Source of the DNA: an uncultured Gammaproteobacteria bacterium | GTDB taxonomy: Bacteria; Patescibacteriota; Microgenomatia; 2-02-FULL-39-11 | Assembly (NCBI GenBank): GCA_964520615.1 | Contig: CAZFNL010000011.1 | Coordinates: 1,123-65,122, forward strand | Reading direction: 5' to 3' | Length of the DNA: 64,000 nucleotides | In this document: in pieces, positions 6,026 through 23,149 of the stretch | How the letters are laid out: each line of letters starts with the position of its first letter | Numbering within the stretch: position 1 is the first letter of the stretch | The notes under the pieces: model-generated | The model's input: only the letters and a program-made list of their open reading frames with translations | Told to the model about the DNA's origin: nothing | Databases searched by the model: none | Program-made: the position numbers and the translations under genes

Positions 6026-6988
6026 TTAAAATCCTCCTACCACCGTTATCTCTCCTTTTATCGGCGGGTAAGGATCATACCCTTCAACGCTGAAGTGTTC
6101 AAAACGGAAATCATCTATCTTCCTAATTGAAGGATCAACTTTCATGACAGGAAAATGTCTGGGAGTGCGACTCAGTTGTTCTTTCACTTGGTCGAAATGG
6201 TTTTCATAAATATGTGCATCCCCAAATGTATGAATAAATTCTCCAGGTTTATATCCCGTCACCTGAGCCAACATTAGAGTAAGCAGGGCATAACTTGCAA
6301 TGTTAAAAGGCACTCCTAAAAACATGTCGGCGCTACGTTGGTAAAGAAGAAGAGAAAGTTTGTCACCGGTAATATTTATATGGTACATCGTGTGGCAGGG
6401 AGCAATTACCATGGATGCGGAGTGGCTGCCGGACATTTCATAAATACAGCCTGCATTCCAGGCAGAGATGACATAGTGTTTCTTTTGTGGATATTTTTTT
6501 ATCTTCTCTATTGCCCACCCCAACTGATCAACTGTCTTTTTGCCACCGGCTGGCCAGCGTCTCCACTGTACACCATAGACCGGCCCCAACTCTCCCCACT
6601 TAGCCAAGAATTTTTTATCTGACTGAATTTTTTGCAGAAACTCATCATAAGCCAATTTTTGCACCTTACCCTCATCAGTCGCCCACTGATATTTTTTATA
6701 AGCCCATTCATCCCAAATATGGACATTATTTTCCACCAGGTATTTTATATTTGAAGAACCGGAGAGAAACCAGATAAGTTCGTGAATTATTCCTCTAATG
6801 AATACTTTTTTTGTCGTCAAAAGAGGAAATCCTTTAGACAGGTCAAATCTTATCTGTCGTCCAAAAACGCTTTTTAGCTTGACACCTGTGGAATGGCTTA
6901 TTTTCCATTGCCCGTTATCCAAAATATCAGCAAGCAAGTTAAGATATTGGTATTCTGGATGGGATTTATCTTTTTGCGCCATAGACAA
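6026..6988 (-). CDS. thyA: Thymidylate synthase ThyA
   Basis: Active-site IAPCH motif and the YLNLLADIL N-terminus. A 320-aa ThyA-type protein, co-oriented with folA. Confidence 0.9.
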   Translation of the reverse strand: MSMAQKDKSHPEYQYLNLLADILDNGQWKISHSTGVKLKSVFGRQIRFDLSKGFPLLTTKKVFIRGIIHELIWFLSGSSNIKYLVENNVHIWDEWAYKKYQWATDEGKVQKLAYDEFLQKIQSDKKFLAKWGELGPVYGVQWRRWPAGGKKTVDQLGWAIEKIKKYPQKKHYVISAWNAGCIYEMSGSHSASMVIAPCHTMYHINITGDKLSLLLYQRSADMFLGVPFNIASYALLTLMLAQVTGYKPGEFIHTFGDAHIYENHFDQVKEQLSRTPRHFPVMKVDPSIRKIDDFRFEHFSVEGYDPYPPIKGEITVVGGF

Positions 6989-7265
6989 TTCTCTTTTTAT
7001 TATTTAACTCCAATATTTTAGTTTACTCCGAAGCGATAGTAAAGTAGAAAATTACCAATATAGAATAATAAAAGCGAAGCATGTGAAAATTTTTGAAAAT
7101 CGCATACGGAACGCTTATTCCAACTGAATATGTAGATAGTGATATGTAATTATATTCAATAATACACTTATTACAACGCACTGACAGAATTTCCCATCCT
7201 TGCGGACTAGAAAATTTTCATTGCGAGCTTTTAGAAAGTTAAGTGAAAATCGCTATATAATATAA

Positions 7266-8364: not shown

Positions 8365-9103
8365 TTTTCAAAAACACTTCTTCAAGATCAGGCTCTTCCT
8401 TTTCTATTTTCAGTATATTTTTAGTCACTTCTGTCGGGTTACCCTTTGCAATAATTTTTCCTTTATGCAAAAGGACAAGATAATCACACATCTTTTCCAA
8501 TTCAGCCATATTATGAGAGGTATATATTATTGTCAAACTGCGTTCCTTCTGTATACTTTTCAAAATTTTCCTTGTCTTATCGGCAATATAAGGATCAAGA
8601 CTTGCAGTTGGCTCATCAAGAAAAAGCACTTCAGGATCGTTTATCAGTGACTTGCATAAATTTAATCTTGTTGCCTCACCCGAAGAAAGATTATTTACTC
8701 TCTGGTTTCTCAATTCCCATATCTCAAATCTTTCCATTAGTTCCCTTATCTTTTCTTTCAGAGAAGAAACATGATAAAGCTTGGCAAAGACCATGAGGTT
8801 TTCCCAGGCAGACAGCCTCCAATCCATATTGGTATAGCTGCTGGAAAAATTTATTTTCTGCAGTATCTCCTCAGTGTGTCCGGAAAAATCCAAACCGAAG
8901 ATTCTGATGGAACCGGACGAGGGAGTAATGAGGTTTAACAGCATTCTTATAGTTGTCGTCTTACCTGCACCATTTGGACCCAGTAGTCCCATAATTTCAC
9001 CTTCTTTTATAACAAACGATAATCTATCAACAGCGGTAAATCCGCCGGCTCGCCCATCGAATTTTTTAGTCAAGTCTTTTACTTCAACGATATTTTCTCC
9101 CAT
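8336..9103 (-). CDS. ABC transporter ATP-binding protein
   Basis: Walker A GPNGAGKTTT, signature LSSGE, Walker B LFLDEPT. Confidence 0.85.
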   Translation of the reverse strand: MGENIVEVKDLTKKFDGRAGGFTAVDRLSFVIKEGEIMGLLGPNGAGKTTTIRMLLNLITPSSGSIRIFGLDFSGHTEEILQKINFSSSYTNMDWRLSAWENLMVFAKLYHVSSLKEKIRELMERFEIWELRNQRVNNLSSGEATRLNLCKSLINDPEVLFLDEPTASLDPYIADKTRKILKSIQKERSLTIIYTSHNMAELEKMCDYLVLLHKGKIIAKGNPTEVTKNILKIEKEEPDLEEVFLKIAGGVHEIL

Positions 9104-9293
9104 GTAAATCCCATTTTAACTTATGATTCTACGCTTCACAATGAAAAAGCACTTGACATTGCGCTGATAATACTATAGGATATTAATACCTTTATCTTTT
9201 TTTAATGAAGATAATCCTGATATAATAAGCTAGAACTTATATCAAAATGAGTTGATTGTGAGTTATAGCTTTCATAGGATTAAAACCTAGGTT

Positions 9294-11525
9294 TTGATAT
9301 CAGTTTTACTACTGCCTATGGCAAGAAGATATAGAAGAAAAAAATTTCCAAAATTCAAACTCAAAGCACAGTCTGTCTTTACCATATTCACTATTCTTTT
9401 TATTGGTGCAGCTGCACTTACCACAATCTCCTTTTTTCAGTCCGGTACCAAATTGGGTCTCGTCCGCAATCTTCTTATAGATAAATTAGGTTGGGGCGGC
9501 ATGCTACTTCCGGTTGTTCTGGTAACATTCTCCTTCCTTTTTATGAAACTGAAATTATCCTTTACCCGCCCAAATGTTTCTCTTGGGGTTTTGTTAAGCT
9601 ATATCTGTCTTTTGGCACTTACCCGCGCGGGAAGTGTCGGTACGCAAATTTGGGAAAATTTTGCAGCGCTTGTCTCAGGTATTGGTGCATTCATTATACT
9701 TTTTGGAATGTTATGCATAGGGCTTATTGTACTTTTCAACACCTCAATAGATGAAATAGCAAAAACAATCAGTGAAATTGCAAAAAGCTTAAATAAAATG
9801 CTAGGTACCCTCCCAATATTTAATATGTCCTTCAAAAAATCAAAACCGCTTTTTGTGGAAAAATTACCCATCAAACCCCCTATTGACTATAAAAGAGAAG
9901 AACAAAAACCTGTCTCCTCCCAAAAGCCTAGTGGGCCAAACAACAAGCAAGTTGCTTCCTCAGTTTCAACCATCAATGGACAATCTCTCAACGCTACAAG
10001 CGGTTTACCGACAGACATTATTGCCAACGTCCCAGGCAGTCAAAATGTCTGGGAATATCCGCCTCTCTCACTTTTATCTTCTTCATTCGGGCAAAAAGCA
10101 GACCGGGGGGATATGAAACACAATGCCAGCACAATTGAGAAAACACTGGAAAGCTTTGGCATATCAGCAAAAGTGGTAGAAGTAAATATGGGTCCGGCAG
10201 TCACGCAGTATGCTCTTGAGATTGCCATGGGTACCAAACTTTCCAAAATTACCGCACTATCAAACGACCTGGCTTTGGCTCTTGCTGCCCCCACAGGACA
10301 AATAAGGATTGACGCACCTATTCCCGGCAGAAGTCTGGTAGGCATTGAAATTCCCAATAAATCGCTTGAGTTTGTTACACTACGGCATATGCTCTCTTCT
10401 GAAAACCTGAAAAGAAGTAAAGAGAAGCTTTTGGTTGCTTTGGGTCTTGATGTATCAGGTAATCCAGTTGCGGCAAATATTGCCAAAATGCCCCATGTTC
10501 TTATTGCCGGGACAACAGGCAGCGGAAAATCAGTCCTCATAAATACATGGATTTCATCACTTCTTTTTAGGACTAATCCGTCAGAAGTAAGACTCATACT
10601 AGTCGACCCCAAAAGAGTAGAACTCATTGGTTATAACGGTATCCCCCATCTTCTGACTCCCGTGATTGTAGAGCCTGATAAGATCCTTTCAGCCCTCAAA
10701 TGGGCCATGGGAGAGATGGATAAACGTTATAAGACTTTTTCTGAAGTGGGTGTGCGTAACATTGACGGCTTCAACGAACTGGCGGGTTTTCAGTCATTGC
10801 CTTATATAGTCATATTTATAGACGAATTGGCAGACCTTATGTCTTATGCCCCAGTTGAGGTAGAAGATTCCATCTGCCGTCTAGCTCAGATGGCAAGAGC
10901 CACAGGAATTCATCTTGTTGTCGCCACACAAAGGCCTTCTGTTGATGTTATTACAGGACTTATAAAAGCCAATATCCCTTCCAGAATTGCTTTTAACGTA
11001 TCATCCATGATTGATTCAAGAGTCATCCTGGACGTACCCGGAGCAGAGAAACTACTTGGACGCGGTGACATGCTCTATATCCCGCCTGAACAAGCCAAAG
11101 CCACCCGCATACAAGGCACTTATATCTCAGAACAGGAAGTACGCCAACTTGTAAATTTTCTTAAAAGTAAAAACATACCAGTACAATACACAGAAGAAGT
11201 TACCTCCATGCCACAGACCTGGAAAAAATCTTCTGGAAGTGGAGCGGGTAGCATGGCAACTGGGGAAGACGATGGGAAGGATGCAATGTTCCAGGAAGCT
11301 ATACAAATAGTCTGCCAATATGATAAGGCTTCGGCTTCCCTCCTGCAAAGAAAATTAAAGATCGGGTATGCCAGAGCCGCAAGGATACTAGACCAGCTGG
11401 AAGAGGAAGGAATTGTCGGACCGGGAGAAGGTTCTAAACCCAGAGACGTCCTCATGCACAACGCAGAAGAGTATTTAGCATCACATACCAATCCAACAGC
11501 TTCTTCCGAACAACAAACATTGTAG
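9294..11525 (+). CDS. ftsK: DNA translocase FtsK/SpoIIIE
   Basis: N-terminal 4-5 TM helices, P-loop GTTGSGKS, IVIFIDELADLM, VATQRPSVDVITG, and a C-terminal gamma winged-helix (LLQRKLKIGYARAARILDQLEEEGIVGP). Confidence 0.85.
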   Translation: MISVLLLPMARRYRRKKFPKFKLKAQSVFTIFTILFIGAAALTTISFFQSGTKLGLVRNLLIDKLGWGGMLLPVVLVTFSFLFMKLKLSFTRPNVSLGVLLSYICLLALTRAGSVGTQIWENFAALVSGIGAFIILFGMLCIGLIVLFNTSIDEIAKTISEIAKSLNKMLGTLPIFNMSFKKSKPLFVEKLPIKPPIDYKREEQKPVSSQKPSGPNNKQVASSVSTINGQSLNATSGLPTDIIANVPGSQNVWEYPPLSLLSSSFGQKADRGDMKHNASTIEKTLESFGISAKVVEVNMGPAVTQYALEIAMGTKLSKITALSNDLALALAAPTGQIRIDAPIPGRSLVGIEIPNKSLEFVTLRHMLSSENLKRSKEKLLVALGLDVSGNPVAANIAKMPHVLIAGTTGSGKSVLINTWISSLLFRTNPSEVRLILVDPKRVELIGYNGIPHLLTPVIVEPDKILSALKWAMGEMDKRYKTFSEVGVRNIDGFNELAGFQSLPYIVIFIDELADLMSYAPVEVEDSICRLAQMARATGIHLVVATQRPSVDVITGLIKANIPSRIAFNVSSMIDSRVILDVPGAEKLLGRGDMLYIPPEQAKATRIQGTYISEQEVRQLVNFLKSKNIPVQYTEEVTSMPQTWKKSSGSGAGSMATGEDDGKDAMFQEAIQIVCQYDKASASLLQRKLKIGYARAARILDQLEEEGIVGPGEGSKPRDVLMHNAEEYLASHTNPTASSEQQTL

Positions 11526-11538
11526 TGTATAGATACTT

Positions 11539-12180
11539 ATGCGCACAGTCGGAGACATTCTCAAAAAAGCCAGACTGGAAAAGAAACTGGAATTTGAAGA
11601 AATCGAAAAACATTTGAAGATTAGGGGGAAATACCTCCAGGCTCTCGAAGAAAACAATTGGAACCAGTTGCCGTCTCTTCCTTATATCAAAGGATTCTTG
11701 CGCAACTACAGTTCTTACCTGGATCTGAAACCTGATGAGATGTTAGCAATTTTCCGCAGGCAATTCACCCAACAACAAAAATCAGGTCTCCTTCCTAATG
11801 GATTATCTCAACCCTTGAATGAACCGCTAATAAAACTGACTCCCCATATAATTGTAACAGGTATAATTATTTCCTTTCTTCTACTTTTCTTCGGTTATCT
11901 GGCTTTCCAATACAATTCTTATACCAGCCCCCCCAACCTGACTATCACAAAACCACAAGAGGGAGAGGTAATAAAATCAGACAAGGTGCAAGTCACTGGC
12001 CAAACAGACACCGACGCTGTCGTTTCAGTCAACGGCCAGAAGATTGCAGTTCTTGCAGGCGGCAATTTCTCAACCACCCTTATACTTGTCCCGGGAGTAA
12101 ACACTATCACGATAGATTCAACAAGCAAATATGGTAAAAAAAAGACTTTAACCAGAACGGTACAAATCTCAGAAAATTAG
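11539..12180 (+). CDS. RodZ-like cytoskeleton protein (HTH + TM + C-terminal beta domain)
   Basis: N-terminal XRE-like HTH (ILKKARLEKKLEFEEIEKHLKIRGKYLQALE), a single TM, and a C-terminal DUF4115-like domain. Confidence 0.6.
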   Translation: MRTVGDILKKARLEKKLEFEEIEKHLKIRGKYLQALEENNWNQLPSLPYIKGFLRNYSSYLDLKPDEMLAIFRRQFTQQQKSGLLPNGLSQPLNEPLIKLTPHIIVTGIIISFLLLFFGYLAFQYNSYTSPPNLTITKPQEGEVIKSDKVQVTGQTDTDAVVSVNGQKIAVLAGGNFSTTLILVPGVNTITIDSTSKYGKKKTLTRTVQISEN

Positions 12181-12321
12181 CATTCAGCCAAACAGCACAA
12201 AGAGCGGCAGGAGATATGATCCAAGAAAGTAAATTCTCCATCAAAACTGATACCTTTTGTACGGTTGACTGTAATGATATCTAAATATTAAAATGTTATA
12301 ACCTATTTAATACACCTGCCT

Positions 12322-12585
12322 ATGATTGATCCGACACAAATACTTCTTTTTTCAGTAGTCATCATACTCACAGCCATTGTTGTTCTAATAGGTTGGCAAA
12401 TCTTTTCTATCCTCTCTGAAATTAGGAAAATGCTTTCAAAAGTAAACATGATGGTTGATGGTGCAGTTTCCATTTCCGGCAACATCGGCAAATCATTCAA
12501 GGATCTGAGCGGATTTTCTGAGGGAGTAAAAACGGTATTGGGTTTTTTAAAGATATTCAAAAGGAAAGGGAAAAAAGATGAGTGA
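12322..12585 (+). CDS. Small membrane protein, hypothetical
   Basis: 87 aa with one N-terminal TM helix. Overlaps the start of the downstream YtxH-like gene. Confidence 0.35.
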   Translation: MIDPTQILLFSVVIILTAIVVLIGWQIFSILSEIRKMLSKVNMMVDGAVSISGNIGKSFKDLSGFSEGVKTVLGFLKIFKRKGKKDE

Positions 12586-12970
12586 CGACAAAAATGGTGG
12601 AAATTTTTGGCTGGGTTTTTTCCTTGGTGGTCTTATAGGCGGCTTTATCATATTCATGCTTGGTACAAAAGAGGGAAAAAAGAAACTGGAAAAGTTACTG
12701 GACCAGGCTGAAGTCTATGAGGAGGAAATTGAGGAGAAAGTGTCCAATCTCCAGAAACAGGGAGAAAAACTTCTGGCTGAAACGGAAGATATAAAGGAAA
12801 AAGTGGTGAAGAAGATGGCTGATAAGAAGGAAATCGTCTCTGATTCATTTACTGATAAAATGGACCAGACTCTAAGTAAAATTGAGGAAGTGCAAAAGAA
12901 GGGTATGGCCCTCACTCAGGATATCAGGCACCGTTATTTCAAGAAGAACGGAAAAACCCTCAACACCTGA
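12578..12970 (+). CDS. YtxH-like membrane protein (DUF948-type)
   Basis: Gly-rich TM (GFFLGGLIGGFIIFMLGTKEGKKKLE) followed by a charged coiled coil, as in YtxH. Confidence 0.5.
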   Translation: MSDDKNGGNFWLGFFLGGLIGGFIIFMLGTKEGKKKLEKLLDQAEVYEEEIEEKVSNLQKQGEKLLAETEDIKEKVVKKMADKKEIVSDSFTDKMDQTLSKIEEVQKKGMALTQDIRHRYFKKNGKTLNT

Positions 12971-13026
12971 TTTATCCATCCCGCATTATAGCGAAAATAG
13001 ATATTTCTATACGCCAAGAAGAAAAT

Positions 13027-13527
13027 TCAGCTCCTGATTTTATCTACCCTACATTCTTTTATCGCCCTATCCATTACGGAAAGCATTTCATTTATAATCT
13101 CTTCCGCTTCAGAAAGTGCCAGTGCCCTTAAGTTATGCTGAAAATAATGGAACACCTGATTCCTGCCTCTTTTCCAAACATTCCATAATTCATCGGCCAA
13201 CTCCCTATCACCACACTTTCTTACTATTTTGTCATATGCTGACCACCGGCGCAGCTGTCTTTCCAATTGAGGATTTAATGCCCTGCCAATTCTGAAATGA
13301 TCACTACCATATTCCTTGGCGCTTATAAATCCGCTATCAAGAAAAAACTTCTTGAGGAATCCTTCGTAGGCTTTAGCAAAAGGAAAAACCAAATAGGAAT
13401 AATCGGTTATGTTCTCATCGGGATGTTCTTTTAGATCATTTAGAAGGTATATTCCTTCGTCAATCAGTCCTTTTTGCCCATCCGAAAGATATTTCCATAA
13501 AAATGAGCTTTTGTCAATTGCAAACAT
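13027..13527 (-). CDS. Hypothetical protein with candidate HEPN motif (R-x4-H-x-Y)
   Basis: 166 aa. C-terminal half carries RNQVFHYF (Rx4HxY), the HEPN RNase signature. Gene lies 21 nt downstream of thrC on the same strand. Confidence 0.4.
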   Translation of the reverse strand: MFAIDKSSFLWKYLSDGQKGLIDEGIYLLNDLKEHPDENITDYSYLVFPFAKAYEGFLKKFFLDSGFISAKEYGSDHFRIGRALNPQLERQLRRWSAYDKIVRKCGDRELADELWNVWKRGRNQVFHYFQHNLRALALSEAEEIINEMLSVMDRAIKECRVDKIRS

Positions 13528-13548
13528 GTGATAGAAAGTATTCTAATT

Positions 13549-15081
13549 TTACCATCTTTTCAAAGATTGCATAATTGCTCTTTCCACTGATTCTTTTCCG
13601 GATGCATACTTTCTCTTGAATCTAATTTTTTTGTTTTTTAGATTGGCAATATTTGGAGGAATAGTAATGCTGGGAAAAAGAATGGTAATTTTTTTTAGGA
13701 TCTTGAACTCATCTTCTTTTGATCCAAAGCCTGATAATGCCTTATAGACATCTTTGGCAAACTTTGCCCAATGCGCGGTGGAACAAATTACTACCGGCTT
13801 AGGAGAGCCGTATTTATTCTGATACCTTTCTGCTACTGCTTGGGCTACTGCAGTATGCGGATCAAGAAGATAATTTGTTTCATTGTATGTCTTTTTTATT
13901 GTTGCTAAACAATCTTTATTTGATACCCAATCGGCAAAGAAATTTTCTTTTAATCTACGCAGTGTCTCACTGTCCACTTTGAAAAAATTGTTATTTTTCA
14001 ATTGACTCATCCAAAAATTCACCTTTTCAACATCATAAGTCAACTCATATAACAACCGCTCCAAATTACTACCCACTAGTATACTCATAGCTGGAGAGGG
14101 GGTTTTTACCAATTTTCTTTTTCTGATGTCATACACGCCTGTTTTCAGAAATTCACTATAGACATTATTTTCATTATTTGCACAGATAAGCCTGCCAACG
14201 GGCAATCCCATAATCTTGGCATAATAGGCGGCCAGAATATTGCCGAAATTCCCCGTAGGAACTGCAATATCTATCCTCTCCCCAAAACTTATCCTTTTCT
14301 CGTTAACCAAATCCAGATAACTTTTTACATGATAAACAATCTGAGGAAATAGCCTTCCCCAATTTATGGAATTGGCAGAAGAAAGTAAGACATTTTTCTC
14401 CAACAGCAGTTTTTCATTAAATTCCTTATCATTGAATAATTCCTTTACACTTTTTTGTACATCGTCAAAATTACCTTGAATTCCGTATACAGCAACATTT
14501 TTCCCTTTCTGCGTGATCATGGATAATTCCTGCAAACTTGATACTCCTTTATAGGGATAAAAGACCACAATTGATATCCCCTCCTTATTGGCATATCCTT
14601 CAAGAGCCGCTTTTCCCGTATCTCCTGAGGTGGCTACAACAATCAGGTAGTTTGGCTGTCTTAACCCTTTCTTTAACCGATGTATTTTTTCTTTTTTCTG
14701 GCTTTCGGTAAACAAATGAGTGGTAAACTGCAAAGCAATATCCTTAAACGCCAAAGTGGGACCATGCCAAAGTTCTAAAAGATATTGATTATCCCTAAGT
14801 TTAATTAAGGGAGTAATCCTCGTATCGTCAAAATTATCTGAATAGGCGCGATAAATCAGCTTTTTTAACAAATCATGATCAAAATCAGTCTTGAACAAAT
14901 CACAAACAGAAAGACACGTATCCTGATAGGAACCATTTAATAAAGGCTTTAACTTTTTTAATGAAAAATGTGGCAATCTCTCAGGTACAAAAAGTCCTCC
15001 ATCTCCTGCAATTCCTTTTAGTATCGTTTCAGAAAATGTGTATATTTTTTTGTCACCTCTTGTACTATGGTAGGAGATCAT
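13549..15081 (-). CDS. thrC: Threonine synthase (long form)
   Basis: PLP-lysine motif HGPTLAFKDIA at the expected position in a 510-aa protein. Overlaps thrB by 4 nt. Confidence 0.85.
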   Translation of the reverse strand: MISYHSTRGDKKIYTFSETILKGIAGDGGLFVPERLPHFSLKKLKPLLNGSYQDTCLSVCDLFKTDFDHDLLKKLIYRAYSDNFDDTRITPLIKLRDNQYLLELWHGPTLAFKDIALQFTTHLFTESQKKEKIHRLKKGLRQPNYLIVVATSGDTGKAALEGYANKEGISIVVFYPYKGVSSLQELSMITQKGKNVAVYGIQGNFDDVQKSVKELFNDKEFNEKLLLEKNVLLSSANSINWGRLFPQIVYHVKSYLDLVNEKRISFGERIDIAVPTGNFGNILAAYYAKIMGLPVGRLICANNENNVYSEFLKTGVYDIRKRKLVKTPSPAMSILVGSNLERLLYELTYDVEKVNFWMSQLKNNNFFKVDSETLRRLKENFFADWVSNKDCLATIKKTYNETNYLLDPHTAVAQAVAERYQNKYGSPKPVVICSTAHWAKFAKDVYKALSGFGSKEDEFKILKKITILFPSITIPPNIANLKNKKIRFKRKYASGKESVERAIMQSLKRW

Positions 15082-15992
15082 AATTCAATCAATTTTACTT
15101 CAGAACCTGTATTGGTAACATCAAGAACCAGAGTACTGCCTGAGATATTACCTTCTGCCGCCGCTTCAACCATATTTCTGGCGATAGCCTTAAAACGATG
15201 TCCTGCAAGAGCAATTATTGATGATCCGCCTCCTGAAAGTGCCGCTCCATAAGCTCCTTCAGAAAGTGCCGCAGCAATAATCCGCGGCATAAGAGGGAAC
15301 ACTTTTGTCCTTGCCGGCTGGTGAATCCTGTCTTCCATCGCAGTCCCAAGAAGGTGATAATTCCCTGACTGGAGTGCAGCCAGAAAAAGTGCTACACGCC
15401 CAGTGTTAAACACCACATCGTTTTTGTGATAGTGTGTCGGCATCAGTTTTCTGCCCGTTATAGTATCCATGGCAAAATCGGGCACAAAATAAACCGCCTT
15501 CAAATCCTGAGGGAAAGGTATTTTTATGTATGTAAGTTTTGCATCTTTTTTTGATGTAACAATGACCAGCCCTCCAAAAAGTGCCGGCGTCACGTTATCC
15601 GGATGCTTTCCGCGTTCAAGCTCAACTGCCATTGGCAGAAGTTCTTCAAAGGAAAAATGGTTATGCAAAAATGCGTTTGCTGCAAGAAGCCCGCCTACTA
15701 CCGCTGTTGCACTGCTGCCGAATCCCCTTCCCTGAGGTATCCCAAGATTCATCTCAATCCTCACTTGAGGAGTTACCTCTTTCAGTTTCTCAAATGGATA
15801 GATAAAAGACTGGTAAAAAAGGTTTTCTTTATTTTTAGGCAAACTGTTTAATCCTTTTATAACAATTCCAAAATTTTGCGCTTCTTCAACCAAAAACTCA
15901 TTATGAAGCCCAACAGCCAGACCAAAAATATCAAAACCCGGACCCAGATTTGCGGACGTTGCCGGTACTTTTATTTTTACTTTCATATTCAA
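15078..15992 (-). CDS. thrB: Homoserine kinase
   Basis: GHMP-kinase motif PATSANLGPGFD; 304 aa. Confidence 0.85.
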   Translation of the reverse strand: MNMKVKIKVPATSANLGPGFDIFGLAVGLHNEFLVEEAQNFGIVIKGLNSLPKNKENLFYQSFIYPFEKLKEVTPQVRIEMNLGIPQGRGFGSSATAVVGGLLAANAFLHNHFSFEELLPMAVELERGKHPDNVTPALFGGLVIVTSKKDAKLTYIKIPFPQDLKAVYFVPDFAMDTITGRKLMPTHYHKNDVVFNTGRVALFLAALQSGNYHLLGTAMEDRIHQPARTKVFPLMPRIIAAALSEGAYGAALSGGGSSIIALAGHRFKAIARNMVEAAAEGNISGSTLVLDVTNTGSEVKLIEL

Positions 15993-16118
15993 TGAGACTA
16001 GAAAAATTCAAACAACTAACGACTGAATAGAATTTTTCGTAAGTCGAATTAATCCCGAGCGCTAGCGAGAGATTTCAATGATAACTAATTCTTAATAAAC
16101 TGTTAACTTCACGTTATT

Positions 16119-17222
16119 TCAAACCGATAGATATCCTTTTTTATAAAGAAGTTCCGCGATAAGAACTGCACCCCCCGCTGCTCCTCGTATGGTGTTGTGA
16201 GAAAGTGATACAAATTTCCAGTCAAAAAATGGATCTTCCCTGAATCTGCCACATGAGACAGTCATTCCTTTTCCCAAGTCTCTATCAAAATTTGTCTGGG
16301 GACGATCATCCTCGGAAAAATATTTTATGAACTGTTTGGGAGAAGATGGTAAATCCATTTCGGAAAGAGGATTGTCAAAATTATGTATTGCTTCAACTAT
16401 TTCCCCAAAAGTCGGCTTATTTTCAAACTTCACCGATACGGATGCCATATGTCCGTCAGTTACCGGTACTCTTATGCATGTTGCTGATATCTGCAAATTC
16501 TCTGCTTCTTTAATCCTGCCTTCCACCAAATCTCCAAGTATCTTTTGTGGTTCTCTTTCTGTTTTTTCCTCTTCGCCGCTTATAAAAGGGATAACATTAT
16601 CTACCATTTCCGGCCAGTCCGCAAAAGTTTTTCCGCCTCCTGAGATTGCCTGAAGAGTGGTTACCTCTACCAGTTTGGGCTTGAATTTCCGCAGAACATA
16701 CAACACAGGTACATAAGATTGGAGGGAGCAATTGGGTTTTACGACAATAAAACCTTTCGACCAACCCCTGTTTTTTCTCTGCGATTCGATTAACCTAAGA
16801 TGGTCTGGGTTTATTTCCGGAATCACCATAGGTATGTCTGATGCAAAACGGTTGCTAGAGTTGTTTGAAACTACCGCTATTCCCTCTTCTGCATATCTTT
16901 CTTCAATCCGCTTAACCCTGTCTTTATCTACATTCAAAGCGGAAAATACCAAATTGACACTTTTGGCAATTTTTTCAAAATCACCTTCAACGTCATAGAT
17001 ACTCATCTTCTTTACCGTTTCTGGCATATCCGTATTCAATTTCCATCGCCTCTCAATAGCCTGCCCGTAAGTCATACCGGCGGAGCGGGCTGAGGCTGCC
17101 AGACATACAACCTCAAACCACGGATGGTTATGGAGCATGCTGACAAATCGCTGTCCCACCATGCCTGTCGCGCCCAAAATTCCTACCCTCACTTTATGCA
17201 CAACTCTTCCTTTTGCTTTCAT
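16119..17222 (-). CDS. asd: Aspartate-semialdehyde dehydrogenase
   Basis: NAD-binding VGILGATGMVGQ, active-site Cys in KPNCSLQ, and the C-terminal dimerisation domain. Confidence 0.85.
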   Translation of the reverse strand: MKAKGRVVHKVRVGILGATGMVGQRFVSMLHNHPWFEVVCLAASARSAGMTYGQAIERRWKLNTDMPETVKKMSIYDVEGDFEKIAKSVNLVFSALNVDKDRVKRIEERYAEEGIAVVSNNSSNRFASDIPMVIPEINPDHLRLIESQRKNRGWSKGFIVVKPNCSLQSYVPVLYVLRKFKPKLVEVTTLQAISGGGKTFADWPEMVDNVIPFISGEEEKTEREPQKILGDLVEGRIKEAENLQISATCIRVPVTDGHMASVSVKFENKPTFGEIVEAIHNFDNPLSEMDLPSSPKQFIKYFSEDDRPQTNFDRDLGKGMTVSCGRFREDPFFDWKFVSLSHNTIRGAAGGAVLIAELLYKKGYLSV

Positions 17223-17225
17223 AAA

Positions 17226-18275
17226 TTACGAATGATAAATAAACTTTGCAGCTTCCAGGACGTCGGCTAGAACCCCTTCTGCTGTCACGCTGACACCCGC
17301 ACCGGGACCTTTCACAACTAGTGGATTTTTATCATATCTTTTTGTTTTAAAAACTATAATATTGTCTGGTCCTTTCAAATTTCCCACGTCACCATTTTTT
17401 TCTACTTCCTCCATACCGATGGTACAGGAATTTACCGTGACGCTTGCCACATACCTTAAAGTCATTGATCTTTCCCCAGCCATATAAATTTTCTTTTTGT
17501 ATTCATCATCAAACCGACCAATTGTTTCCATAAATTTATCTACAGTCAGTCCATCCATATTCCGGGGATATAAACTTTCAATTTTAATATCCTCTATTTC
17601 AATCCTCCTGCCCAAAAGTCTGGCAAGAATTAACGCTTTCCTTGCTACATCCATTCCAGAAAGGTCATCTCTGGGATCCGGTTCTGTAAAACCTTTTTCT
17701 TTGGCCTGTTCTACTGCTTGAGAAAATAACATCCCTTCCTCCAGATGGAAGAATATGTATCCGAGTGTACCGCTGAAACAACCTTTTATCTCAGAAATAC
17801 TGTCACCGGTATCGATAAAATTATTTAATGTAGAAATAACCGGTAAAGCCGCTCCGACTGTCGTCTCAAAAAATAATTTTCTTCCAAAATATTCCTCCAA
17901 TCGGTCAAATTGCTTTTGACTCTGCGTAAATGGCTTTTTGTTGGATGTGACTACATATCCGCCATTGCTGAGGGTTAACATAAACAATTCGAGTGTCTTA
18001 TCAGATGCCGTCGTATCAATCAGGATAAACGGATCAACAACTACTTTTAACGCCTTTTTTACATCTACTCCGGAGGATGTTTTTGGGAAACTTTTTATCT
18101 TATTTTCAGATAAGCCCTCCGCATCAAAAACACCTCCTTTTGAACCGAACATACCGCAATAATTCAAAAATATCCCATACTTCCTTTTCCAAGAAGGATT
18201 TACTTCCTCTATCTCCCTGATAAGTTCTTTTCCTACATTACCGATACCCAAATGAATGATGTTAATCTTGTGCAC
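17226..18275 (-). CDS. hom: Homoserine dehydrogenase
   Basis: N-terminal IIHLGIGNVG Rossmann motif and a Hom catalytic domain; 349 aa. Confidence 0.8.
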   Translation of the reverse strand: MHKINIIHLGIGNVGKELIREIEEVNPSWKRKYGIFLNYCGMFGSKGGVFDAEGLSENKIKSFPKTSSGVDVKKALKVVVDPFILIDTTASDKTLELFMLTLSNGGYVVTSNKKPFTQSQKQFDRLEEYFGRKLFFETTVGAALPVISTLNNFIDTGDSISEIKGCFSGTLGYIFFHLEEGMLFSQAVEQAKEKGFTEPDPRDDLSGMDVARKALILARLLGRRIEIEDIKIESLYPRNMDGLTVDKFMETIGRFDDEYKKKIYMAGERSMTLRYVASVTVNSCTIGMEEVEKNGDVGNLKGPDNIIVFKTKRYDKNPLVVKGPGAGVSVTAEGVLADVLEAAKFIYHS

Positions 18276-19176
18276 TTGTTACTCCTTTCCAGATTTTTGT
18301 TCCTGCAAATTCCGGCCTGAACGTATTTTTTACCCAGACGGTAATTTCTTTTTCGGCTACCGGCTTCAGAGCTTGAGGATGCAGCACTTTTGCCCCTTTT
18401 TGAGCCATATCCAAAGCATCAACATAAGAAATCTCGGCAATAAATTTCGCGTTACTACCCTTTTTGGGATCGCCGTTAAATAACCCATCCACTTCTTTCC
18501 ATAAAACCACTTCGGAAGCATCCAAGGCATATGCAAGAATTGTAGCGGTATAATCTGATCCTCCTCTGCCCAACGTTACGACCTTTCCTTCTCTTGTACC
18601 CCCATAAAATCCTGTCACAACAGGAGTTACGCCTTTGAAAATGAGTTTGTAAATCAGCTGTTCCGTCATTTCCCGTGTCTCCTCAAAATTGACTTTGTAA
18701 TTGCCGCTCTCATTCGACATAAGTATCAGCTTCCCACTATCTACTTCCCGTGCTCTCACTTTTATGTGTTGCAGTACGGCTGAAAGCAGAATGCAACTGA
18801 GCCTTTCCCCAAACGAAACCACATAATCATAACCGCAATCTGCAAGTCCCTTCTTAAAAGTCAGACAAGTGATAAGTCTTCCGAAAAGTCTGACTAATTT
18901 TTCGTGGGTTTCTTCATACATTTCCCTTCTCAATTTCAGACCAACCAGTGTTTCAAGATGCAATGTGTAAAGATTGTTTAGCCCTTCATAGGCATCAGCA
19001 TACCGGCCATCCTTATAAAAATTGTAGACATCTATCAAAGTATCGGTGACACCACCCATTGCAGAAACCACAACCACCACATGACCACCTGAAGAGTGGT
19101 TTTTTATGATATCCGCAACTCTTAATATATTTTGTGCTGACCCGACGGATGATCCGCCAAATTTCATGATTTTCAT
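18262..19176 (-). CDS. lysC: Aspartate kinase, short form without ACT regulatory domains
   Basis: MKIMKFGGSSVG ... VVVVSAMGGVTD amino-acid-kinase motifs. Only 304 aa, so the usual C-terminal ACT domains are absent. Confidence 0.8.
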   Translation of the reverse strand: MKIMKFGGSSVGSAQNILRVADIIKNHSSGGHVVVVVSAMGGVTDTLIDVYNFYKDGRYADAYEGLNNLYTLHLETLVGLKLRREMYEETHEKLVRLFGRLITCLTFKKGLADCGYDYVVSFGERLSCILLSAVLQHIKVRAREVDSGKLILMSNESGNYKVNFEETREMTEQLIYKLIFKGVTPVVTGFYGGTREGKVVTLGRGGSDYTATILAYALDASEVVLWKEVDGLFNGDPKKGSNAKFIAEISYVDALDMAQKGAKVLHPQALKPVAEKEITVWVKNTFRPEFAGTKIWKGVTSAQD

Positions 19177-20692: not shown

Positions 20693-23149
20693 TTATAAAA
20701 GCACTTCAAGAAGCGCATTCACATACTTTCCCAGGTGAAACCTCTTCCTTCTTCTTATAAGTATCAGGAAAAATGCTAGTGGAACAACTGACAACCATGA
20801 TTCATTTACATTCAACCTTGCTCCTCCCAAAAGCATCCCGGCAAAACTTGTTTCTGTAGCCTTGGCAAAAGCCGGAGACACGAAACTGCCGCGAAGCATT
20901 CTGTTTTGGCCGTTGTTTTGGCCCAATATGTAGGTCTGCGGATCCTGTTGTAAATATTCCTGTGCTTGGTTTGCCAGTTGATATTTTTGGTTTGCGACAT
21001 TTGCAGTTGCCAGATAGTAACTCGACGGGTAATAATATCGGGCCTGCTGAACCTGCTGTTGTGTCTGGAGGCCGCTTGTATCTGTCGGATAATAGTATGA
21101 GTAATAAGTATGTGAGTAATTTTGGCTATCAGCTGTTTGTTTTGTTGCGGTCACACCGCCTATATTGGTATCTGCGGTATCAAATGACGGTAAAGGATCC
21201 AAGGTCGGTGTAGGAGATATTGCGCTTTGTGAATTATTACTGCTCCCTGTTGTACCTGAGTTAATTGTGTCTCCACTTCCGGCTTCAGCCGTCTGATTAT
21301 AGTTTTGTCCTGGTGTCACCACATTCCCCAGGAAATTACCAAACACATTCACCAGAAGTACGGCAAAATTCTTGGCGGTTACATTTGTGTTAACCAGATT
21401 AACCAGATTTAGTCCAACCTGAGCATTACCCGTCTGTATTTGTCCTTCTCCGGTATTGTCCTGGGCTTTATTGTTACCGGTATCGGCATTTGCAGTAATA
21501 TTGTTTACAATACTAGCACTATTGTTATTGGATAAAGAAGTATCTGACGTACTATTATAGGTAGAGTTATTTGTTGAAAGTGCTCCTGTCCCGCTACTGC
21601 CTACATCCGTAGTATACGTACCAGACCCTCCACCTCCTGTTTGTTGCACAGGTAAACCGTTTGAAGCAGATGTCGCTCCCCACGGAGCTCCCATTATATA
21701 ACCCACCCATTTACCCATATCGTTTACTATGACAAGCCATACAGTTCCACCCTCATCCACTGCGTTCGTATTGGCTACTGTACTATTGCTCACTTGCGTG
21801 TTGGAATTTCCCGTAGTTACGCTTCCTCCACCGGTATTTATGGAGGCTGAGTTGTTTCCAGTATTGGCGGTAGCGTTTACTGTACTTGTGATATCAGCGG
21901 TATTATTATTGGTTAAGTTTGTCGAATCTGAAGTGTTGGATGTGGCATTATTTGTTGACAGCGCACCAGTAGTATTGTTGGTCACATTTGTACCCGCGCT
22001 TGTTGTGTTTGAAGCTGTAACATTTCCGGTGGAATTTCCAGTACTCCATGGCAAAACAATATTTCCCGCCAAAGTCCCATAAATATTTACTACACCCATC
22101 AGCCAATTACTGACGTTTAAATTGGAGTTAACCATGTTTATAATGTTGCCAAGAGCTGTAGCATTTCCGGTCTGGATAGTACCGTTACCCGTGTTGTATG
22201 ACGCACTGTTTTGACCGGTAACTGCCTGCAAATTTATATCATTTACCAGTTGAGCGTCATTTCCGTTGGCTTCTTTGACTGAAAAGGAATTATTTGCTGG
22301 CGCATCATTGGATGAACCTGCTCCCGTCACTGAATTTTTGGATACTGTAGGAGAGGCACTTGAGAATCCGCTGCCTGCACTTGGATCGCCAGTCTGGAAG
22401 ACTATATCACCTGTCTGAGTACCATACACATTGTAAGTAGAGAAACCTCCCACTCCTGAGATATTACTGTTTAGTTTATTTAAGAGATTTACTGCAGATT
22501 GGGTATTCCCAGTTGATACCTGGCCGTTTAGAGTATTAAGGTCAGCATAATTGAAACCTGTATTTGTAGCGGCATCAATCTTATTTTGGATATCAGCCAA
22601 ATTTTTATTCAATACCTGCTGCCAGTTGGAATTTGTTTCTGAAGCGCTATTTGTGGATAACGCGCCAGTTCCGACATTCGCCGGATCGCTAACGCTACCG
22701 TTTGTGCCAGTGTCACCTGTAGGACCTGTCGGACCGTTTGTACTTGAGGCGCCCAAAACATTATTCGTGTTTGTTGTACCTGTACCATCTGTGGAACTGC
22801 TGCCTGTCGGTTGAGAACCGGAAGTACCTGATGGGCCGGTAGAACCCGATGGGCCAGAAGGATTTGTAGCGGGCGGATCACTACTGGTCGGTGCGGGAGC
22901 AGTTGTTGGAGATACGGAAGAATTGGTAGGCTGCGGAGCGCTGGTGGGTGCCGGTGCGCTCGTTGGCGCGGAAGCACTAGGTGGTGAAGTCGGGGCCGGT
23001 GCGCTGGGCGGACTGGTTGGTGCAGGAGCTGAAGCTGGAGACTGCGCACTCTGGCCGTATACCACCGGAACCCATACCAAATTCCCTCCGGTAAATACCA
23101 GGCTTAAAATAAGTATAAAACTGATAATTTTGTTTCTAAATTTTGACAT
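20693..23149 (-). CDS. Large secreted Asn/Thr/Gly/Ser-rich repeat protein (paralog 1 of 3), putative surface fibre or beta-solenoid
   Basis: Signal peptide, then PAPTSPPSA x4 repeats, then long degenerate repeats (e.g. ...NTGNNSASINTGGGSVTTGNSNT...). Ends in a C-terminal hydrophobic segment followed by RRRKR. Confidence 0.6.
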   Translation of the reverse strand: MSKFRNKIISFILILSLVFTGGNLVWVPVVYGQSAQSPASAPAPTSPPSAPAPTSPPSASAPTSAPAPTSAPQPTNSSVSPTTAPAPTSSDPPATNPSGPSGSTGPSGTSGSQPTGSSSTDGTGTTNTNNVLGASSTNGPTGPTGDTGTNGSVSDPANVGTGALSTNSASETNSNWQQVLNKNLADIQNKIDAATNTGFNYADLNTLNGQVSTGNTQSAVNLLNKLNSNISGVGGFSTYNVYGTQTGDIVFQTGDPSAGSGFSSASPTVSKNSVTGAGSSNDAPANNSFSVKEANGNDAQLVNDINLQAVTGQNSASYNTGNGTIQTGNATALGNIINMVNSNLNVSNWLMGVVNIYGTLAGNIVLPWSTGNSTGNVTASNTTSAGTNVTNNTTGALSTNNATSNTSDSTNLTNNNTADITSTVNATANTGNNSASINTGGGSVTTGNSNTQVSNSTVANTNAVDEGGTVWLVIVNDMGKWVGYIMGAPWGATSASNGLPVQQTGGGGSGTYTTDVGSSGTGALSTNNSTYNSTSDTSLSNNNSASIVNNITANADTGNNKAQDNTGEGQIQTGNAQVGLNLVNLVNTNVTAKNFAVLLVNVFGNFLGNVVTPGQNYNQTAEAGSGDTINSGTTGSSNNSQSAISPTPTLDPLPSFDTADTNIGGVTATKQTADSQNYSHTYYSYYYPTDTSGLQTQQQVQQARYYYPSSYYLATANVANQKYQLANQAQEYLQQDPQTYILGQNNGQNRMLRGSFVSPAFAKATETSFAGMLLGGARLNVNESWLSVVPLAFFLILIRRRKRFHLGKYVNALLEVLL

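Follow-up and report, generated by a model that had tools for sequence, protein, structure and literature searches.

The locus considered here raises the question of why a small protein with a putative ribonuclease (RNase) motif is encoded directly behind a threonine biosynthesis operon, and what such a protein might do in the cell. The analysed stretch of DNA, in the following referred to as the window, comprises 64,000 nucleotides (nt) of contig CAZFNL010000011.1, which belongs to an assembly named "uncultured Gammaproteobacteria bacterium" and assigned by GTDB to the Microgenomatia within the Patescibacteriota. The gene is located on the minus strand at 13027–13527, has an ATG start and encodes a protein of 166 amino acids (aa), which the open reading frame (ORF), Pfam, profile comparisons and an AlphaFold2 model indicate to be a HEPN protein of the RNase LS (RnlA/LsoA) class that stands alone as a single domain. 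A preliminary description of the window had taken the protein for a HEPN RNase, a group usually expected to be toxins or defence enzymes, and had suggested that it is wired to an amino acid pathway. The features on which that description was based can be read directly from the sequence: the motif R122-N-Q-V-F-H127-Y-F (residues 122–129) is encoded at 13141–13164, and a spacer of 21 nt (13528–13548) separates the stop codon of thrC from the start of the HEPN gene, all on the minus strand. The data presented in the following argue for the HEPN assignment and against the metabolic connection, and they lead us to regard the protein as probably a stand-alone endoribonuclease of the RnlA/LsoA type, which was recruited to a housekeeping role in RNA processing or turnover in reduced genomes.

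The motif itself is of little diagnostic value. A bare R-x4-H occurs in 16 of the 67 window proteins, and about 0.18 occurrences would be expected in a protein of 166 aa. Thus, the motif alone is at chance level and its weight rests on homology and conservation. In Pfam, the protein yielded matches to PF18869 (HEPN_RnaseLS; E-value 1.2e-5, 26.1 bits) and PF19034 (RnlA-toxin_DBD; E-value 3e-4, 21.5 bits), which lie under the respective gathering thresholds of 29 and 27, and no other Pfam match. Searches of NCBIfam, PADLOC and, with the single sequence, the PDB gave nothing useful for the window protein, whereby PADLOC reported no defence-system match. A profile built from 37 homologues (profile A1) gave a single match among the PDB sequences, namely the C-terminal HEPN/Dmd-binding domain of LsoA (5HY3, residues 224–344; E-value 0.002), and in this alignment K52, E55, R122 and H127 fall on R243, E246, R305 and H310 of LsoA. 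An hhalign comparison of profile A1 with the LsoA segment alone, which was verified as lsoA by tblastn against a plasmid collection, yielded a probability of 81% and an E-value of 1.2e-5 with the register unchanged. The equivalents of these four LsoA residues in RnlA, R255, E258, R318 and H323, are each needed for RNase activity and toxicity (PMC8266594). A search with the family profile extends further to the proteins P0221, which passes the PF19034 threshold, and P0270, which contains RnlA_toxin and DBD domains.

HEPN domains are defined at the sequence level by R-x4-6-H, by a polar residue (N, D or H) right after the arginine, and by an upstream E-x3-[KR] (PMC3710099). All three features are present in the 166-aa protein, as R122-x4-H127, N123 and E55-G-F-L-K59. 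The last of these is part of a second active-site element, K52-A-Y-E55-G-F-L-K59 (13351–13374, minus strand), which combines a K/R..E pair with the E-x3-K and was delimited by conservation and by the LsoA alignment. Across 151 family members, K/R52 and E55 were each found in 150 of 151 sequences and K59 in 145 of 151; R122 is present in 148 of 148, N123 in 147 of 148 and H127 in 146 of 147 members when non-gap positions are counted. The arginine and histidine, whose lack of conservation would have spoken against a HEPN domain, are therefore practically invariant, and the HEPN call stands. Further positions are conserved specifically in this family, namely W11, Y13 and Q18 in the N-terminal helix and the motif F78-R79-I-G81...P86 within an insert formed by residues 65–108.

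The AlphaFold2 model, which was calculated with profile A1, presents an all-helical bundle with a predicted local distance difference test (pLDDT) score of 88.6 and a predicted template modelling (pTM) score of 0.87. Its helices comprise residues 16–34, 48–64 (carrying K52 and E55), 109–125 (ending in R122-N123) and 138–158, with a helical insert at 70–105. The fold expected of the superfamily is an up-down bundle of four helices with an insert between core helices 2 and 3. Foldseek matches of the model to the PDB were not significant, with a best E-value of only 0.26, and the top matches were all HEPN proteins (AF_0298 2hsb, 4nqf, RnlA 7aex, Csm6, and TT1696 1ufb). The top structural match in BFVD was an RNaseLS-like viral protein with a probability of 0.99 and a TM-score of 0.64. 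The HEPN reading of the preliminary description is thus supported by the LsoA profile match, the K/R..E pair, the aligned catalytic residues and, more weakly, the helical model. Overall, the comparisons place the protein among the HEPN domains of the RnlA/LsoA class and show the full set of predicted active-site residues.

The resemblance to RnlA and LsoA covers the HEPN sub-class indicated by the profile match, the equivalent K/R, E, R and H positions, and the context of the motifs, since DYS...EGF and W..R..FH are found in both. However, the window protein consists of a single domain and has neither the two TBP-like domains (NTD/NRD) nor an RNase H domain, it carries a lysine (K52) in place of the first arginine as well as the family-specific insert at 65–108, and its Pfam scores stay below the gathering thresholds. 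Moreover, no RnlB/LsoB antitoxin gene lies beside the window gene, and the family, which belongs to the candidate phyla radiation (CPR), is chromosomal and vertically inherited, whereas RnlA and LsoA are encoded on a genomic island or a plasmid. In the published table of HEPN families, RNase LS members occur as fusions with TBP-like or RNase H domains and have RnlB as their partner, and no stand-alone forms are given (PMC3710099). Some distant profile matches are multi-domain proteins: P0230, P0261 and P0268 (589–662 aa) combine DUF3378, a TBP-like domain of the RNase HIII N-terminal type, with a HEPN-like middle domain and RNase HII, and P0270 carries a cold-shock domain in addition to RnlA_toxin and DBD. 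These multi-domain relatives echo the published association of RNase LS-class HEPN domains with RNase H.

The family occurs widely among the ultra-small bacteria of the CPR. Among 5.8 billion proteins, 881 homologues were identified, nearly all of which are 160–170 aa long, unnamed and from Patescibacteria and Gottesmanbacteria, and many of them show the same weak Pfam marks. The family comprises 239 clusters at 50% identity, with lengths of mostly 160–200 aa. When one genome was scanned for each GTDB species, at least 507 genomes proved to carry a relative, including Gottesmanbacteria, Roizmanbacteria, Woesebacteria, WWE3 (among them the complete genome of WWE3 RAAC2) and "Microgenomates". 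A literature search on HEPN proteins in Patescibacteria retrieved nothing on this CPR family. Many carriers are titled "uncultured Gammaproteobacteria bacterium" (loci L009, L013, L015 and others) and have a gene and synteny of the Microgenomates type; such titles of metagenome-assembled genomes look like placeholders or mislabels and not like real taxonomy.

The genomic context was analysed for the best 80 species-level loci from these at least 507 genomes, and neighbouring genes were clustered de novo for 78 loci. Five synteny types were found, each of them stable within its lineage. Type A (34 loci) has the order pth, 92-aa ORF, (acylphosphatase), membrane protein, HEPN gene and CPBP/Rce1-like protease gene, and type B (21 loci) the order nusG, L11, L1, (cytidylate-kinase-like), HEPN gene and P-type ATPase gene. 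In type C (WWE3), type D and type E (5 loci each), the HEPN gene is followed by mnmA, by a convergent block reaching from YtxH to FtsK, and by trpS, respectively, whereby type D is the arrangement of the window. The neighbours are housekeeping genes such as pth, nusG-L11-L1, trpS, mnmA and alaS. Of 70 nearest neighbours in sequence, 61 belonged to the same synteny type, whereas about 23 would be expected and label shuffles gave 36 at most. Thus, sequence relatedness follows synteny type, which fits vertical descent.

In order to judge the evolutionary rate, protein identities were compared over identical genome pairs of these loci, as too few genes are common to the window and the distant loci. 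The HEPN protein showed 57% identity compared to 60% for Pth, 66% compared to 55% for L1, and 68% compared to 58% for transketolase, and it is less conserved than L11 or NusG. Within the 64-kb window the gene is present as a single copy. Its GC content and its GC content at third codon positions (GC3) are unremarkable, as are those of the thr operon, so that composition gives no sign of recent transfer. This slow, single-copy and lineage-stable pattern is unlike that of toxin or defence genes that are mobile and evolve fast, and the toxin or defence role that would usually be expected of a HEPN protein fits poorly with it.

A conserved partner gene was not found either. In the 78 loci, no small co-directional partner is conserved or shared between the synteny types, and a minimal nucleotidyltransferase (MNT) gene adjoins the HEPN gene in none of them. 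The earlier statement that no partner is evident is correct for the window, where neither an MNT nor an RnlB/LsoB-type antitoxin gene lies beside the HEPN gene and no co-directional gene follows it downstream. This also sets the protein apart from the type VII toxin–antitoxin (TA) system HepT/MntA. HepT is similar in that it is a small stand-alone HEPN protein of about 130–170 aa with an R-x4-H and an expected dimer, but the window protein has its nearest relatives in sequence in the RNase LS class and not in HEPN-T or DUF86. Candidate partners were considered and rejected. The block of YtxH, 87-aa ORF, HTH_25 and FtsK is conserved only in the subclade of the window, and the small gene pairs next to the HEPN genes of loci L007 and L033 have the appearance of TA cassettes that were inserted independently. 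By eye, the pair of L007 (7492–7988; 81 aa and 83 aa, ending in ...ILRVGHRREIYK) is RelE/ParE-like and that of L033 (4241–5499; 177 aa and 242 aa) is AbiEi/AbiEii-like. They occupy a slot upstream of the HEPN gene which is variable in general and can contain the thr operon, alaS, glycosyltransferase genes or such apparent TA cassettes.

A different kind of neighbour is the CPBP/Rce1-like intramembrane protease gene, which is located behind the HEPN gene, in the same orientation, in 29 of the 78 loci (type A, L012–L058; e.g., L022 at 8584–9261). In two clusters of 383-aa proteins (P0133 and P0136), an N-terminal HEPN part is even fused to a C-terminal Rce1-like part. This suggests a functional link or a membrane tethering in those lineages; a CPBP gene was not found in the 64-kb window.

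To our knowledge, the HEPN RNases of bacteria are almost always taken to act in toxicity or defence and to require a partner that neutralises them. The vertical inheritance, the lineage-stable positions among housekeeping genes and the lack of an antitoxin gene therefore read as the recruitment of a toxin-type fold to housekeeping. If the protein acts in this way, a homodimer, as is canonical for HEPN proteins, would bring two R-N-x3-H motifs and two K52/E55 pairs together. K52 and E55 would position the substrate and the histidine, as has been shown for RnlA, and RNA would be cut independently of metal to leave 2',3'-cyclic phosphate ends, as by other HEPN RNases. RnlA requires its TBP-like domain for substrate binding (PMC8266594). 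Since this domain is missing here, substrate recognition would fall to two surfaces conserved in this family, one on the insert (F78-R79-I-G81...P86) and the other on the N-terminal helix (W11, Y13, Q18). A functional precedent is the eukaryotic endonuclease Las1, a mainly stand-alone HEPN nuclease which cleaves the internal transcribed spacer 2 (ITS2) of pre-rRNA and thus works in core RNA processing and not in conflict (PMC3710099). The likeness is one of functional analogy only, as no specific similarity in sequence or structure was detected, and Las1 works with the kinase Grc3, whereas no such partner was seen for the CPR family. More tentatively, it is possible that a toxin-class RNase was domesticated as a partner-less, vertically inherited housekeeping endoribonuclease across a CPR super-clade of Microgenomates and WWE3, where it may replace missing RNA-processing or decay enzymes and would constitute a bacterial counterpart of Las1 and similar eukaryotic HEPN nucleases with housekeeping roles. 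If the protein is a constitutive RNase, it would be a clear example from bacteria of how a nuclease of the conflict type was drawn into core RNA metabolism, and the set of RNA-processing enzymes of the CPR, which is poorly understood, would gain a further member.

It might also be that the protein is a solitary toxin or anti-phage RNase of the RnlA/LsoA type, which is kept inactive by a non-canonical dimer state, by an element acting in cis or by a partner that is encoded elsewhere and so far unrecognised, and which is freed on infection or stress. The members of the class that have been characterised, RnlA and LsoA, all function as toxins or as nucleases in defence (PMC3710099, PMC8266594), the active-site residues are intact, one homologue (P0092) is named "type II toxin-antitoxin system RnlA family toxin" by NCBI, and the adjoining or fused CPBP/Rce1-like proteins belong to a group that is often linked to self-immunity. 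However, this possibility has to reconcile a toxin with the lack of both a conserved co-directional small partner and a PADLOC match, and with inheritance along lineages in stable housekeeping surroundings. Toxins are fast-evolving and patchy, whereas the HEPN protein changes at about the slow rate of Pth and at a lower rate than L1, and it also has no counterpart of the TBP-like domain which RnlA requires to bind its substrate. We therefore consider a solitary toxin less likely than the housekeeping role, although it is the main alternative, and automated "RnlA family toxin" labels are probably misleading for the CPR family.

Alternatively, the domain could be non-catalytic and bind RNA, nucleotides or protein, in the manner of MtlR or of the HEPN domains of nucleotidyltransferases. 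Some HEPN families are indeed non-catalytic (PMC3710099), and the insert (65–108, with R79 and G81) and the N-terminal helix (W11, Y13, Q18) could serve as binding surfaces. However, non-catalytic HEPN domains typically lose the R-x4-6-H (PMC3710099), whereas this family retains R, N, H and the K/E pair almost without exception in 151 sequences, which makes a mere binding function improbable.

The remaining question is whether the position behind the thr genes has a meaning. In the window, the operon lysC-hom-asd-thrB-thrC (13549–19176, minus strand) lies directly upstream of the HEPN gene and was assigned by Pfam, with lysC encoding an AA_kinase protein, thrB a GHMP kinase and thrC (13549–15081, minus strand) a protein with Thr_synth_N, PALP and THR4_C domains. 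In the spacer between thrC and the HEPN gene, no promoter-like or terminator-like site was predicted and no obvious Shine–Dalgarno sequence was seen, and upstream alignments across relatives together with a promoter and terminator scan revealed no conserved signal 5' of the HEPN gene. The co-transcription proposed in the preliminary description is thus plausible as read-through from thrC in the window genome, but it looks like a by-product of an operon insertion. Among the 80 loci, thr genes were present within 8 kb of the HEPN gene in only three (L006, L008 and L010), all of which belong to the window's own subclade. The protein P0076 (L001/L002) is encoded behind lysC-hom-asd-X-thrC, whereas for P0045 (L003) and P0093 (L004), which are 61–68% identical, no thr genes are found and the HEPN gene lies beside a divergent alaS or a gene of unknown function. 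Taken together, L003, L004 and L007 (61–70% identity) have no thr operon and still keep the HEPN gene along with the convergent block. A role in threonine biosynthesis, for instance as an RNase that regulates thr mRNA or answers to amino acid supply, might be read from the gene lying 21 nt past thrC in the same orientation, with neither a promoter nor a terminator predicted in the spacer, and from the recurrence of this arrangement in L006, L008, L010 and L001, but it is highly improbable, since so few loci have thr genes nearby, close relatives keep the gene without the operon, and the loci that are linked to thr genes hold two different versions of the thrB/thrC slots. The claim of an RNase wired to an amino acid pathway thus did not hold when the loci of homologues were compared. 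The adjacency looks like a lineage-specific, local accident that arose when an operon was inserted into a variable slot, with no functional link, and it should not be taken as metabolic regulation.

The operon itself, which is complete in the window and thus in a CPR genome resembling Gottesmanbacteria, is patchy among close relatives, being present in L006, L008, L010 and L001 (1039–5926) and absent from L003, L004 and L007. The window and L006 encode a ThrB of the GHMP-kinase type and a 510-aa ThrC with Thr_synth_N, whereas in L001, L008 and L010 the thrB and thrC slots are occupied by a 207-aa protein that has no Pfam match and by a PALP enzyme of 420 aa. The 207-aa protein is possibly a non-orthologous homoserine kinase. 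With these two versions among the thr-linked loci, the HEPN gene tracks no particular set of thr genes.

On the other side of the HEPN gene, a convergent block assigned by Pfam (9294–12970, plus strand) encodes FtsK, an HTH_25 (RodZ-like) protein, an 87-aa ORF and a YtxH-like protein, whereby the YtxH-like gene (12578–12970, plus strand) is the next gene downstream. The block, with an ORF of about 90 aa, is kept in L001–L008, L010 and L011, with or without thr genes. In the window, the HEPN and YtxH-like genes are 56 nt apart (12971–13026) with no predicted terminator between them, and in several relatives their 3' ends overlap by 6–12 nt (L001, 6491–6501; L003, 6493–6504; L004, 5421–5426; L007, 8493–8504). 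Convergent transcription could couple the expression of the two genes.

Two further observations concern proteins without a Pfam match. The 92-aa protein encoded just after pth (cluster c4; L025 at 6938–7216 and 26 other loci) has a median pairwise identity of 77.6% over 27 genomes, compared to 76.4% for L11 in its own genome set, and may be an unrecognised core protein. In the window, an 818-aa ORF is located beside a sortase gene at 20693–23149 (minus strand). Its counterparts beside the sortase genes of L003 and L004 are 712–735 aa long and show at most a weak match to Baseplate_J, and the 818-aa product may be a sortase-dependent surface protein.
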